Virus genome (UHGV): UHGV-0285855 | Strand: one strand, 5' to 3' | DNA: 18,234 nucleotides | From: a virus | Part shown: one piece after another, positions 12,016-16,800 of the stretch | Layout: every line of letters begins with the position of its first letter | Position numbering within the stretch: position 1 is the stretch's first letter | Translations under genes and position numbers: made by a program | Notes under the pieces: model-generated | Told to the model about the DNA's origin: nothing | The model's input: the letters and a program-made list of their open reading frames with translations, nothing else | Databases searched by the model: none

Positions 12016-12537
12016 TTACTGTGGCTGTTCAGGCCATTTAATGGCGTTAAATTCAGCTTCAGTTTTAATGGCGGGTAATACCATTTTTTTCACCTGACTG
12101 ATGTATGCCATCCATCTGGTAAGTGCGGCTCTGTCTTCATCACTGATGGTGCCCAGTTGTAGTTCTGTTCTCCAGTCATTAATTTTTTCATATGCCTGAT
12201 TAAGATATGACTGGCGCAGTTCTTCCGCTTTTTTGTCGTAGTTGACCGGAAGCGGTGAGATGACGCCATTATCAAACTTCCAGTTACCTGAAATATCCGT
12301 GCCTTCAGGGAGTTCATCGGCCTCAACCACAGAGAATCCCACAGGATACAGCGCCGAGGCGTCCTGTGATATTGAGCAGATAATGCCGCTGTCAGGTGTT
12401 ATGCAAAGTTTATATTTTTTGGTGAATAATGGCAGGGACTCGTAGAAATCCTTACCATCTTCACTCTGAAAATACTGAACATTATTACCATATGGCATAT
12501 TTTCAGGATAATAACGGGTTATATTTTTTAGTTCCAT
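12016..12537 (-). CDS. Tail fibre assembly chaperone (Tfa / Mu U-like)
   Basis: 173-aa ORF; C-terminus ...SDEDRAALTRWMAYISQVKKMV...IKWPEQPQ fits the conserved Tfa C-terminal signature; AGGAGG upstream on the minus strand. Confidence 0.8.
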   Translation of the reverse strand: MELKNITRYYPENMPYGNNVQYFQSEDGKDFYESLPLFTKKYKLCITPDSGIICSISQDASALYPVGFSVVEADELPEGTDISGNWKFDNGVISPLPVNYDKKAEELRQSYLNQAYEKINDWRTELQLGTISDEDRAALTRWMAYISQVKKMVLPAIKTEAEFNAIKWPEQPQ

Positions 12538-12588
12538 AAAATCCTCCTGGAAATAAATCTGTTTTAAAATATATTATTTACCGCCTAT

Positions 12589-12949
12589 TTATAACTGAGA
12601 TACCGTAATCCATGAGCCATTTATGTATATCTGTAGTGGGCGAAAATAAGCAAAATCGCCACTGTTATCCACTTCACCCGCTATAGATAACGCCGTCATT
12701 ACACATCCTCCTATACCGATTTTTCCCCCGAATGGCATTAATACAGACATTTCTGAACCCAGTCTCACATTCTGCACATAACGGGCATCACCATCCAGCA
12801 GAGTCATACCAGAAGTGATGTTTATATCCTGCGTTCCGTCAAAAGGAACCCCATTAATTGTGTGGGCATTTGCCAGCCTGTTCGCGGCAACGGCCGTTCC
12901 ATTCGATGGCAGTGCGTTCGCGGCCTTGTTTACCGTTTCCCGTAAACCG
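12589..12949 (-). CDS. Alternative tail-fibre variable C-terminal cassette (promoterless; expressed only after inversion)
   Basis: The minus-strand frame reads ...[31 protein letters not shown]...YFRPLQIYINGSWITVSQL; the first ~35 codons are encoded by IR-R and are identical to the current fibre. Confidence 0.7.
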
Positions 12950-12950
12950 A
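12845..12950. repeat. Right copy of 106-bp perfect inverted repeat (IR-R)
   Basis: Reverse complement of 11632-11737. Confidence 0.9.
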
Positions 12951-12962
12951 GGTTTTCAGGAA
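12937..12962. promoter_or_regulatory. Right gix/hix-like 26-bp recombination site
   Basis: TTCCCGTAAACC-GA-GGTTTTCAGGAA, a near-palindromic 26-mer closely resembling the gix consensus, at the outer edge of IR-R. Confidence 0.65.
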
Positions 12963-13027
12963 AGCCCCTGTTCTCCCCGTTTTATTCATCATGCGACAAT
13001 TCCGGCTTTTTATAATAAGGAGATCGT

Positions 13028-13600
13028 ATGCTGATTGGGTATATCAGGGTGTCAACAAATGACCAGAATACGGCGCTACAGAGAAATGCGCTGGAATGTG
13101 CAGGATGTGAGCTGTTTTTCGAAGACAGAATAAGCGGTAAGACAAGGGAACGTCCCGGCCTTAAACGCGCATTAAAGCGACTCCGGCCAGGGGATACCCT
13201 GCTGGTCTGGAAACTGGATCGTCTTGGACGTAGTATGCAGCACCTTGTCCTTTTAACAGAAGAACTCCGGCAGCGCGGCGTTAACTTCCGCAGCATTACG
13301 GACAATATTGATACATCCACTCCCATGGGACGTTTCTTTTTCCATATAATGGGCGCACTGGCGGAAATGGAGCGGGAACTCATTATTGAACGTACACGCG
13401 CGGGTCTTGCTGCTGCCCGTGCTCAGGGGCGTCATGGCGGCAGACCTCAGAAACTGACAGGGAAAGAGCGGGAGCAAATCGCCCGTTTGCTGGCTAATGG
13501 CGAGTCCCGTAAACAAATCGCACTGATATTTGATATTGGCCTGTCCACCCTTTATCGTTATTTTCCTGCCTCACCGGCTCCGTCACCAAAAGTACCGTGA
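13028..13600 (+). CDS. gin: Serine-recombinase DNA invertase (Gin/Hin/Cin/Pin family)
   Basis: 190 aa; N-terminus MLIGYIRVSTNDQNTALQRNAL... with catalytic Ser in RVST; resolvase-type catalytic domain plus C-terminal helix-turn-helix (LSTLYRYF); AAGGAG 5-10 nt upstream of the ATG; adjacent to the invertible segment. Confidence 0.9.
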   Translation: MLIGYIRVSTNDQNTALQRNALECAGCELFFEDRISGKTRERPGLKRALKRLRPGDTLLVWKLDRLGRSMQHLVLLTEELRQRGVNFRSITDNIDTSTPMGRFFFHIMGALAEMERELIIERTRAGLAAARAQGRHGGRPQKLTGKEREQIARLLANGESRKQIALIFDIGLSTLYRYFPASPAPSPKVP

Positions 13601-13685
13601 CGCTTTTTTGAATTTCCGCAAAACACATATTTTTCAGCGGTCGCTATTCTGACTCTGTTTAATTCAGAAACAGGCAGAAAAGACG

Positions 13686-15734
13686 ATGTCAGACTCCCAG
13701 TGGAAAATGCTCTCCGCCATGCCCGGAGAGTTTTCAGTCAAGGTTGCCGGTGGCACGGTGGCATTTATTGAAAGTCCTTTCCGGCCTTCGGGTAATAAAG
13801 GCGGGATCACCTTCGCAGACTGCGTGATCCGCTTCAGCACGAAAGAGCCATTATGGATAATGCCGGTATCAGGTAATCCCAGCGCAGAAATCACCAGTTC
13901 AGGCGTGACCGGTATCATTCCGATCACATCTGACGTGGCCGGAACACTCACACCTTCTGACTGGAGTGCACCGGATAACGCCGGATCTTCTGGTGGCACA
14001 AATGGCAGCAGTACAGAGCCGGAGTATTACTATGTGCTTCCACTGACCGGGCAGTCCAACGGGATGGCCTACGGTGAAGGGCTTCCGTTGCCGGATTCAT
14101 TTGACCGTCCTGAACCGCGCATTAAGCAACTGGCCCGACGCAGTACGGTAACGCCGGGTGGTGAAGCCTGTTCTTATAACGATGTCATTCCCGCAGACCA
14201 CTGTCTGCATGATGTGCAGGACATGAGCGGGATGAACCACCCGAAAGCTGATCTGGCAAAAGGCCAGTACGGGACTGTCGGTCAGGGGCTGCATATTGCC
14301 AAAAAACTGCTGCCTTATATTCCGCAGAATGCCGGGATACTTCTGGTTCCCTGCTGTCGTGGTGGTTCGGCATTCACCGCCGGGGCTGATGGCTCATTCA
14401 GTGAGGCCAGCGGTGCTTCCGCTGATTCTTCACGCTGGGGAGTTGGTAAACCCCTGTATCAGGACCTGCTCAGTCGCACCAGAGCGGCGCTGGCGAAGAA
14501 CCCGAAAAATAAACTTCTGGCTGTGGTATGGATGCAGGGAGAGGCAGACCTTGCTTCAGGAAGTCAGCAGCATAATGGTTTATTTACAGCCATGGTTCAG
14601 CAGTTCAGAACCGACCTGTCTCCGCTTGCTGCGCAGTGCGTGAGTGGAAATGCTGCCACGGTGCCGTGGATTTGTGGTGATACCACGTATTACTGGAAAA
14701 ACACGTATGCCACGCAGTATGAAACAGTCTATGGCGCATATAATAATCTGACCGCACAGAATATTTTCTTTGTGCCGTTCCTGACGGATGAGAATGGACA
14801 GAACACGCCAACGAATGCTCCGGCGGAAGACCCGGATATTGTGGCTGTCGGGTATTACGGTGCGGCATCCCGTACCCAGGGCAGTTTTGTCTCCACACAG
14901 CGTGACAGCCATTTCAGCTCATGGGCACGCAGGGGCATCATTTCTGACCGTCTGGCCTCAGCCATTCTGCTCCATGCGGGACGCACGGCTGAAGTTATGG
15001 GCGGACAGGCCGTGCCGCCGGATGAAAAACCATCCCCTGACACGCCATCAACGCCGTCAACGGACGGGAAATCAATGACGACGCTGTTTTCTTACCGCGC
15101 ATCGGAGTCAGGCGGAGCACTGACGCCACAGGGCTGGGGGGCGGAAGGCGGTAGTGCTGCTGTTGTGGATGATGTCGGTGCCAGCGGGGGCAAGGCGCTG
15201 AAGCTGACAAAACAGACCGGAAAGTCATGGTTTATGCAGCATGATGCCGGTAATGGTGCCGACCTGCTGGAAAAAGGTGGCCTTGTCAGCTGTCGTTTTA
15301 AACTTGATGGCGCGCTTACGGCTAATCAGTACGCACTGGCGCTGTACTGGCCGGTTTCTTCGCTGCCTCAGGGCGTCACACTGGAAGGTAATGCCGGCCA
15401 TAACCTGCTGGCATCGTTTTACGTTCAGAGCGATGCCACAGACCTTAACGTGATGTACCACAAGGGTAATCCAGACCAGAACACGAAGCTGGGTTCATTC
15501 GGTGCATTTAATAACGAATGGCATACGCTGGCATTCCGTTTTGCCGGTAACAACAGTATTGAGGTAACGCCGGTGATTGATGGACAGGACGGGACACCGT
15601 TCATGCTGTCGCAGTCTCCGGTAGGGACACTGGCGGCAGACAAGTTACGCCTGACCGATATCACCAGTAATGCAACGTATCCGGTACTGATTGACAGCAT
15701 TTTGGTGGAAGTGAATAACCCGTCAGCAGGATAA
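13686..15734 (+). CDS. Multidomain carbohydrate O-acetylesterase, SGNH/SASA (sialate-O-acetylesterase-like, NanS-like) family
   Basis: 682 aa; GQSN block at aa 122-125 (nt 14049-14060) in place of GDSL; WMQGEAD block; DSH near the C-terminal part of the catalytic domain; extra N-terminal (~115 aa) and C-terminal (~230 aa) domains. Confidence 0.65.
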   Translation: MSDSQWKMLSAMPGEFSVKVAGGTVAFIESPFRPSGNKGGITFADCVIRFSTKEPLWIMPVSGNPSAEITSSGVTGIIPITSDVAGTLTPSDWSAPDNAGSSGGTNGSSTEPEYYYVLPLTGQSNGMAYGEGLPLPDSFDRPEPRIKQLARRSTVTPGGEACSYNDVIPADHCLHDVQDMSGMNHPKADLAKGQYGTVGQGLHIAKKLLPYIPQNAGILLVPCCRGGSAFTAGADGSFSEASGASADSSRWGVGKPLYQDLLSRTRAALAKNPKNKLLAVVWMQGEADLASGSQQHNGLFTAMVQQFRTDLSPLAAQCVSGNAATVPWICGDTTYYWKNTYATQYETVYGAYNNLTAQNIFFVPFLTDENGQNTPTNAPAEDPDIVAVGYYGAASRTQGSFVSTQRDSHFSSWARRGIISDRLASAILLHAGRTAEVMGGQAVPPDEKPSPDTPSTPSTDGKSMTTLFSYRASESGGALTPQGWGAEGGSAAVVDDVGASGGKALKLTKQTGKSWFMQHDAGNGADLLEKGGLVSCRFKLDGALTANQYALALYWPVSSLPQGVTLEGNAGHNLLASFYVQSDATDLNVMYHKGNPDQNTKLGSFGAFNNEWHTLAFRFAGNNSIEVTPVIDGQDGTPFMLSQSPVGTLAADKLRLTDITSNATYPVLIDSILVEVNNPSAG

Positions 15735-16085: not shown

Positions 16086-16340
16086 ATGCCAGAAATTAAA
16101 GGCACCGTCACTGAAGACCTGGTAAAACAGGCACTGTATTCCGGTGAAGTAAATAAGTTGCTGAAAGCGCAAGTCCGCAAGGATTTTGAGGCACAAATCG
16201 ACACTTACGTTGATGAAGTGCTGGCAAAACTTATTGGACCAGCTGCTGCGGCCAGTGATGCTGATAATGAGCCGAAAACCGAAGCACAGCCAGAACAACC
16301 AGACCCGGCTCAGCCCGGAACTGACAGCACCATGATGTAA
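16086..16340 (+). CDS. Hypothetical small acidic protein
   Basis: 84 aa; AAGGAGG 7 nt upstream of the ATG; followed by an intrinsic terminator. Confidence 0.5.
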   Translation: MPEIKGTVTEDLVKQALYSGEVNKLLKAQVRKDFEAQIDTYVDEVLAKLIGPAAAASDADNEPKTEAQPEQPDPAQPGTDSTMM

Positions 16341-16346
16341 CAATAC

Positions 16347-16379
16347 AAACCGGCAGTTTCTCCTGTCGGTTTTATTTTC
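16347..16379 (+). terminator. Rho-independent terminator
   Basis: Stem AAACCGGCAG / CTGTCGGTTT (one G-U pair), loop TTTCTC, followed by TATTTTC. Confidence 0.55.
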
Positions 16380-16415
16380 ATGGGCGCTTTATATACCAAT
16401 CAGAGGACGATAATC

Positions 16416-16616
16416 ATGGACAAGAATAAAAAGCAACCTGATACCAAAGGCCTGGAAATATTAAGCACAGAAATTATCAATGCGCTACGTTCAGGACTTG
16501 ATGAAGATACATTACAGGATCGAAACTTCACCACCGCAATGTGGATAGCTATGCAGATCCTGTGTACCCCAAGATGCGCTATTTTTGCGGTTCGTGAAGG
16601 TCAACTGACTCGCTGA
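16416..16616 (+). CDS. Hypothetical small protein
   Basis: 66 aa from ATG 16416 (GAGGA 8 nt upstream); the longer ORF from 16380 lacks a ribosome-binding site. Confidence 0.4.
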   Translation: MDKNKKQPDTKGLEILSTEIINALRSGLDEDTLQDRNFTTAMWIAMQILCTPRCAIFAVREGQLTR

Positions 16617-16732
16617 TTGCACGAATTACATCAGAAAATCAGGCGTTCCATAACTGCATAGCTGATGAATCACCTCCCTGAATCATTGTTGATGACTTTT
16701 CAATCTATTTGTTGTATCAATTAAACAAATCG

Positions 16733-16757
16733 AATCGATCGTTTTTGTCGATCGATT
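16733..16757. promoter_or_regulatory. GATC-containing palindrome upstream of com (candidate Dam-methylation-sensitive operator/promoter element)
   Basis: AATCGATCG-TTTTTGT-CGATCGATT: two copies of CGATCG, each containing a Dam site (GATC at 16737-16740 and 16750-16753), ~45-65 bp upstream of the com ATG. Confidence 0.4.
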
Positions 16758-16800
16758 AGGCGAGAAAGGTATCATCAACAAAGCAGGAGGTTATGCGGCC

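Follow-up and report, generated by a model that had tools for sequence, protein, structure and literature searches.

A palindromic GATC pair upstream of com in an Escherichia coli Mu-like prophage as a probable counterpart of the Dam-sensitive OxyR site of Mu mom

The window analyzed in this study, a stretch of 18,234 nucleotides, represents the late end of an Escherichia coli Mu-like prophage. It comprises tail genes, a gin-like invertase (13028-13600) and several cargo ORFs (DUF6645/SASA esterase, DUF1378 and DUF826), followed by com, which overlaps the gene of a C5 cytosine methyltransferase. E. coli CI5 carries a complete relative (L164), inserted in yfcU. The Com protein of the window is 50% identical to that of Mu, and the closest solved relatives of the methyltransferase are M.HhaI and M.HaeIII. 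The region 12016-15734, which includes the gin-like serine invertase, resembles a G segment. Beside the invertase a minus-strand ORF of 173 aa (12016-12537) may be an inverted remnant of a tail-fibre-assembly gene, a reading based on the annotation at the matching position in the relatives L001 and L164. Between gin and com the prophage has an insertion (13686-15734) that encodes a DUF6645 protein of 682 aa with a SASA sialate-esterase-like domain. Besides, the plus strand carries a terminator-like hairpin with a T-run behind the DUF826 ORF (16347-16372), which suggests that transcription of the ORF at 16380-16616 and of com is not mere read-through from the tail operon. The features of the com locus are listed in Table 1.

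Table 1. Features of the com locus, given in positions of the window
Feature	Position	Strand	Remarks
Conserved operator-plus-com cassette	16668-16969	+	In 233/5426 complete E. coli genomes, whatever flanks either side
Alternative weak promoter (putative)	16692-16720	+	-35 ATGACT 16692-16697, 17-bp spacer, -10 TATCAA 16715-16720
Distal OxyR half-site (predicted) ATTTGTTGTATCAAT	16707-16721	.	7/10 positions; 31 bp 5' of the proximal half-site
Palindrome AATCGATCG-TTTTTGT-CGATCGATT	16733-16757	.	Contains the proximal OxyR half-site (predicted) and both Dam sites
Dam site GATC, distal of the pair	16737-16740	.	Invariant across about 10 lineages
Proximal OxyR dimer half-site (predicted) ATCGTTTTTGTCGAT	16738-16752	.	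7/10 positions
Best-scoring sigma-70-like promoter (predicted)	16745-16775	+	-35 TTGTCG 16745-16750, 19-bp spacer, -10 TATCAT 16770-16775
Alternative -35 TCGATC (predicted)	16748-16753	+	16-bp spacer to TATCAT
Dam site GATC, proximal of the pair	16750-16753	.	Starts 51 nt before the com ATG
Ribosome-binding site AGGAGG of com	16785-16790	+	Read from the sequence
com	16801-16989	+	62-aa zinc-ribbon protein, homologue of the Mu translational activator; PF10122, E=6e-13
Hairpin (putative) CCCCAC 16929-16934 x GUGGGG 16955-16960	16929-16960	+	Holds the GTG start of the methyltransferase
C5 cytosine DNA methyltransferase	16955-18007	+	In mom position; PF00145, E=1.6e-42

An inverted-repeat scan of the window returned the palindrome at 16733-16757 (AATCGATCGTTTTTGTCGATCGATT) with perfect arms of 9 nt and a spacer of 7 nt, located 44-68 nt upstream of the com ATG. 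Its two GATCs start at 16737 and 16750, 13 bp apart from start to start and 51-64 nt 5' of com, in the gene order gin - cargo - com - modification gene. The original prediction had described a perfect inverted repeat with two GATC sites 13 bp apart in front of com, and all of its coordinates and distances hold. On the window alone, neither the palindrome nor the GATC pair is beyond chance. The window contains two perfect 9+9 inverted repeats whose loop is at most 12 nt, compared to a mean of 1.17 in dinucleotide shuffles, 60% of which contain at least one. GATC-N9-GATC was found once where 0.26 were expected, and at least one copy occurred in 22% of the shuffles. Across the window there was no enrichment of GATC (65 observed, 71.6 expected). 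Since the statistics within the window do not exceed chance, the case for a real element must rest on comparison, and judged by homology and conservation the element is non-random. In the CI5 prophage, over its full length, the palindrome motif is present once and only 5' of com.

An inverted repeat of this kind could also be a structural hairpin, that is, an intrinsic terminator of the minus strand, a stem in the mRNA leader or a cruciform, rather than a protein operator, and our terminator scan indeed flagged the minus strand with a 9-bp stem and a 7-nt loop followed by CGATTTGTTT. Nevertheless, no minus-strand gene runs into the palindrome, as com and the methyltransferase gene are both on the plus strand, and the plus strand has no T-run. 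Moreover, pairing beyond the GATC core is lost in several lineages, including Mu and L155, and an Rfam search at E<=1 gave no match. We consider such a structural role extremely improbable.

The palindrome strongly resembles the regulatory region of Mu mom, which contains ...GACGATCGAATCAATTAAATCGATCGGTAATACAGATCGATTATGCCCCAATAACC.... The Mu element AATCGATCG-GTAATACA-GATCGATTATG and the element of the window, AATCGATCG-TTTTTGT-CGATCGATTAGG, have an equal frame of 25 bp with a GATC spacing of 13 bp. The arms AATCGATC and GATCGATT are identical in both, and the palindrome corresponds to the Mu GATC sites 2 and 3. The block ATCAATTAA further upstream is also common to Mu and the window, as is an ATAG-type distal half-site 31 bp upstream. 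Moreover, the two elements agree in genomic position, each lying 5' of com at the right end of a Mu-like prophage. However, Mu carries three GATCs and the window only two, and the cargo is Mom in Mu but a C5 methyltransferase in the window. The operator is also about 27 bp nearer to com, with the proximal GATC at ATG-51 compared to ATG-78 in Mu, and the roughly 27 bp missing from the window are those where Mu carries the C activator site TTATGCCCCAATAA. Among the com lineages the distance from the proximal GATC to the com ATG is 50-57 nt in most, to which we refer as 'short', and 78-81 nt in Mu and two Mu-type lineages. OxyR reportedly binds the Mu mom region only when it is unmethylated, a result attributed to Bolker and Kahmann in 1989 and to Hattman and Sun in 1997. 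Passages in two later publications describe that OxyR binds the mom region only if its GATCs are unmethylated by Dam, and that it then represses mom (PMC3378877, PMC2909390). By its homology, the palindrome is the conserved counterpart of this methylation-sensitive OxyR site that silences mom in Mu.

To search for OxyR half-sites we scored sequences against the OxyR dimer consensus ATAGnTnnnAnCTAT at its 10 specified positions, which measures a match to the consensus and is not a calibrated model. Two predicted half-sites matching ATAGnTnnnAnCTAT lie at an allowed spacing in the window (7/10 and 7/10, offset -31), as consensus matches only. Scores of at least 7 occur in the window at a background rate of 0.0015 per position. 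The fit is imperfect, since both half-sites reach only 7/10, and position 10 of the proximal half-site is G and not the consensus A. The distal half-site does not contain a GATC but has TATC in place of the GATC-I of Mu and agn43. In Mu the distal half-site is ATAGAAAACGACGAT, which carries GATC-1, and agn43 also has a distal match, ATAGAATAAAACGAT. The offset between the half-sites is 31 bp in the window and in Mu, and 32 bp in gtr and agn43. In all com lineages the proximal half-site scored 7-8/10, and a distal half-site at -31 or -32 scored 6-8 in 9 of 11 lineage representatives and 5 in the remaining two. An alternative half-site 22 bp upstream (6/10), which overlaps the -31 site and is a possible register of oxidised OxyR, was left out of this count. 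Downstream of the proximal half-site, at offsets from +20 to +33, the best score was 5 and was reached at one offset only.

Similar elements control agn43 (flu) in E. coli MG1655 and gtr in phage P22. The agn43 operator ATCGATCGTTTATATCGATCGATAAGC and the corresponding stretch of the window, ATCGATCGTTTTTGTCGATCGATTAGGC, have a near-identical core, and the palindrome corresponds to GATC-II/III of agn43, which has three GATCs compared to two in the window. The distal ATAG half-site of agn43 lies 32 bp upstream, that of the window 31 bp. At agn43 OxyR acts as a repressor from a single site, and this single-site switch does phase-vary (PMC2909390). The agn43 operator is located just 3' of the start site, and the isrC/flu transcript is annotated as starting at GATC-I. 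This arrangement would fit the window only if the putative weak promoter upstream of the palindrome were in use.

In P22 gtr a perfect ATAGATAAAAACTAT has on either side, at an offset of 32 bp, a half-site of the form ATCG-N7-CGAT with two GATCs spaced by 13 bp. Broadbent et al. reported that OxyR binds the gtr half-sites in gel-shift assays and that Dam methylation abolishes this binding (Broadbent et al. 2010, PMC2909390). In form, the proximal half-site of the window equals half-sites A and C of gtr, for which binding was shown experimentally. Likewise, the OxyR(BC) repressing site of gtr consists of a distal half-site without GATC (B) and a proximal one with two GATCs 13 bp apart. For gtr, GATC4 has been placed at -33 relative to the start site (PMC2909390). 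With TATCAT as -10 and TTGTCG as -35, the two GATCs of the window would be positioned at about -46 and -33, like GATC3 and GATC4 of gtr. The -10 begins 21 nt after the proximal GATC in gtr and 20 nt after it in the window. The geometry of the window operator is therefore nearer to that of gtr OxyR(BC) or agn43 than to that of Mu. Both gtr and the com operon are phage-borne, but the genes that they control are unrelated. Moreover, gtr has a third half-site (A) and a second GATC pair which give rise to an OxyR-activated ON state and to phase variation, and no counterpart of half-site A was found upstream in the window.

We also scanned viral contigs for CGATCG-N7-CGATCGAT. Among the matches listed, only 16 of 133 were followed within 400 nt by a com-like ORF, and many of the others come from G+C-rich stretches and have the appearance of chance hits, so that the scan does not serve as a census. 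The core with an AT-rich spacer also occurs in other phage contigs with an enterobacteria-like G+C content of 0.40-0.49 (L186, L203, L270 and L199/L202/L238/L264/L281), in several of which a third GATC is found nearby. In L186, L203 and L270 the core lies beside ORFs that resemble glycosyltransferases or an acetyltransferase, as judged from sequence alone. These contigs may contain further Dam/OxyR switches of the gtr kind.

For a broader comparison we collected 160 loci encoding relatives of Com. The com ORF was located in 151 of 163 sequences (the 160 loci, L001, Mu and the window), and the upstream sequence was read at each. A GATC pair exactly 13 bp apart was found 5' of com at 77 loci, all of them in prophages of the enterobacterial type. 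These collapse to 41 unique sequences and about 10 lineages (E. coli, Salmonella, Citrobacter, Mu and others). The nine inner bases between the GATCs differ among the lineages (GTTTTTGTC, GTTTTTATC, ATTTTTATC, GATAAAAAC and GTCAAAATC, and further GGTAATACA, GGTGTTGTC, GGTGATATC, GATTCTGGC and AATATTACC), but both GATCs and the flanking C/G are kept, and most of the different spacers observed also retain T at consensus position 6. The com loci of Neisseria, Haemophilus, Acinetobacter, Methylophaga and the other non-enterobacterial genera examined do not have the GATC pair, which is consistent with an enterobacterial adaptation. As the lineages are homologous, the agreement among them should not be counted as so many independent events.

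Within the E. coli lineage, we compared 11 unique variants from 29 loci. Variable columns made up 0 of 15 in the distal half-site and 1 of 25 in the palindrome, compared to 6 of 15, 4 of 11 and 8 of 18 in the surrounding segments. The two blocks form a footprint that widens the functional element to about 16707-16757 and provides the strongest internal evidence for what would be a bipartite protein site. The same pattern bears on the idea that the element is an inherited relic of a Mu-type operator which is no longer functional in the prophage lineage of the window. In favour of a relic, GATC-1 and the activator site are gone, the downstream -10 drifts among siblings, and operator-deleted variants persist in Salmonella-type prophages (L005, L150, L153 and L154), so that the operator is dispensable in some prophages. 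However, in the E. coli lineage the two half-sites hardly vary although their flanks do, and the GATC pair survives in lineages whose surroundings have diverged beyond alignment. A non-functional relic thus appears highly improbable. In the four deleted variants, at about 2400-2500, an operator with three GATCs has collapsed to AATCAAT, and the TATCAT -10 and the leader were kept. L005 is labelled as Vagococcus sp., yet its sequence is Salmonella-like, which suggests possible contamination.

The original prediction had placed the palindrome over the -35 region of a promoter with TATCAT as -10-like element. The overlap is borne out, as with a 17-bp spacer to TATCAT the -35 position (16747-16752) falls within the right arm. 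For TATCAT itself the result was divided: scored with our own approximate PWM, TTGTCG-19-TATCAT was the best promoter of the window (8.6, compared to 6.8 for TCGATC-16-TATCAT), but this -10 is not conserved in the sibling E. coli prophages, most of which have TATCAA or CATCAA. A stricter consensus sigma-70 scan of 16300-17100 detected no promoter. The putative weak promoter further upstream, ATGACT-17-TATCAA, reached a PWM score of 4.8-6.2 and lacks the T at -7. Its two hexamers are kept within the E. coli lineage with a variable spacer, and if it were used, the palindrome would span about +6 to +30, an agn43-like position. A good -10 (TATCAT or TATACT) follows 7 nt after the proximal GATC in the lineages of Salmonella and Citrobacter. 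With either candidate promoter of the window, the operator would coincide with the promoter or with the first 30 nt of the transcript, given their predicted start sites. As far as predicted promoters can tell, there would in every case be an overlap of the operator with the promoter or with the early transcribed region.

The position of the GATCs within the predicted -35 and spacer would also be compatible with control by Dam without OxyR, in which the GATCs alter the affinity of RNA polymerase or the hemimethylated pair recruits SeqA after replication. SeqA binds pairs of hemimethylated GATCs, and such affinity speaks for this possibility. Furthermore, at gtr methylation also has a direct effect on promoter activity (PMC2909390). 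However, this explanation does not account for the conserved distal half-site at -31, which has no GATC, nor for the T6 and the CGATCG context that fit the OxyR consensus, and it leaves the homology to sites of proven OxyR binding unexplained. We regard it as quite unlikely.

The prophage's own late activator of the Mor/C family was considered as another ligand of the palindrome, in which case the com operon would be an ordinary late unit and the GATCs incidental. Mu mom needs C, which binds a dyad-symmetric site beside GATC-3 (PMC4461284). The CI5 prophage encodes a single Mor/C-family protein, a C orthologue that is 40% identical to Mu C (WP_000852372), and a dimeric activator could recognise a dyad; the weakness of the com core promoter would also agree with a need for activation. 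Nevertheless, the Mu C site TTATGCCCCAATAA is absent from the window, where the gap between palindrome and TATCAT is only 17 nt. The lys and I late promoters of CI5 share the motif CCGCAAAnCCTGCCC-N15-TAyGCT (L164:13790-13804 and L164:21719-21733), of which CCGCAAAnCCTGCCC is probably the site of this activator. Only these two exact copies of CCGCAAAnCCTGCCC were found in the CI5 prophage, with no third, and near com there was none with up to three mismatches. Besides, no equivalent of the Mu P promoter carrying CCGCAAAnCCTGCCC was found in the CI5 prophage. The palindrome, in turn, occurs nowhere else in this prophage; its core is shared with agn43 and gtr, which have no phage activator, and it is kept across prophage lineages whose activators must differ. 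Recognition of the palindrome by the late activator therefore seems very unlikely, although a very degenerate activator site could still be present near com. The late-activator part of the analogy with Mu is not supported, as neither the Mu C site nor the motif of the lys and I late promoters was found near com. The comparison indicates that the commonest natural arrangement would not be that of Mu but one without an activator site and with the operator on the predicted promoter.

Downstream of the operator, com and the methyltransferase gene parallel com and mom of Mu. In Mu a CCCAC/GUGGG stem covers the GTG start of mom, and the putative CCCCAC/GUGGGG stem of the window would cover the GTG of the methyltransferase at 16955 in the same design, with CCCCAC falling within the com codons for EHPT. 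The folding energies of this hairpin were no better than those of shuffled sequences (z = -0.4 and -0.9), and the parallel with Mu is an analogy of design only. A com homologue followed by a DNA-modifying enzyme other than Mom in the mom position has been described elsewhere (Drozdz et al. 2012, PMC3299994). Hin1523 of FluMu, Nma1821 of Pnme1, Hia5 and ORF48 of B3 are such com-linked methyltransferases of Mu-like prophages (PMC3299994). These are adenine methyltransferases from non-enterobacterial hosts, whereas the enzyme of the window is of the C5 type and found in E. coli.

The limits of the operator-plus-com cassette were taken from megablast alignments, which begin at query position 69 and stop at position 370 in most genomes. 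The downstream recombination junction of the cassette lies inside the 3' end of com. Only 10 of the 233 E. coli genomes with the cassette combine it with a C5 methyltransferase of the window type, and most of the others carry Mom. Altogether, three unrelated cargos were found 3' of the operator, namely Mom, the C5 methyltransferase and, in the Salmonella lineage, an N6/N4-type methyltransferase with a DPPY motif (L004:2643-3434). This evidence indicates that operator and com form a conserved, portable cassette in prophages of E. coli, Salmonella and Citrobacter.

Taken together, we consider it likely that the palindrome forms the proximal part of a Dam-sensitive OxyR operator in two halves, about 46 bp long (16707-16752), which controls the com-methyltransferase operon. 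The idea that an epigenetic switch analogous to that of Mu mom may gate this operon is supported by the homology to Mu GATC sites 2 and 3, the 7/10 matches to the OxyR consensus and the conserved GATC pair, but the dependence on C is not supported. The element would be a variant of an already known switch, from which it differs by having two GATCs, a position nearer to com, no recognisable activator site and a predicted overlap with the core promoter. In the window the operator would lie on the promoter itself and guard a cytosine methyltransferase in place of Mom.

In the mechanism that we propose, an OxyR tetramer would occupy both half-sites (16707-16721 and 16738-16752) as long as the two GATCs of the proximal half-site are not fully methylated. 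With their separation of 31 bp the half-sites have the extended spacing on which reduced OxyR relies at P22 gtr. Since the site overlaps the predicted -35 and spacer or, with the upstream promoter, the transcript over its first 30 nt, bound OxyR would block RNA polymerase. Full methylation of both GATCs by Dam would evict OxyR and permit transcription, and the Com protein then made would relieve the hairpin over the GTG start of the methyltransferase. OxyR binding and its sensitivity to methylation, the position of the promoter, repression and the Com step are all inferred from the sequence.

As the predicted promoter has no recognisable late-activator site, expression independent of lytic induction may follow. 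In prophages with the 'short' architecture, com and the methyltransferase, and in siblings com and mom, would then be expressed from the resident prophage without induction, under the control of Dam and OxyR and possibly in a bistable manner, which we regard as rather unlikely. A gtr construct with the BC site alone showed uniform low expression and no phase variation (PMC2909390). This argues against phase variation at com and calls for caution, although the single site of agn43 does support it there. In the methylome papers searched (O111, O145, ST131 and Salmonella) no undermethylated GATC was reported at a Mu-like com.

Control of Mu mom by Dam and OxyR is a textbook case that has been studied in a single phage. 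If our reading is confirmed, the regulation derived from Mu would not be simply transferable to most Mu-like prophages. Moreover, lysogens might then switch a prophage methyltransferase on and off epigenetically, which touches on restriction evasion and on the methylomes of the hosts. An epigenetic switch that drives an epigenetic writer would, if true, give lysogens of E. coli a phase-variable C5 methylome of prophage origin.
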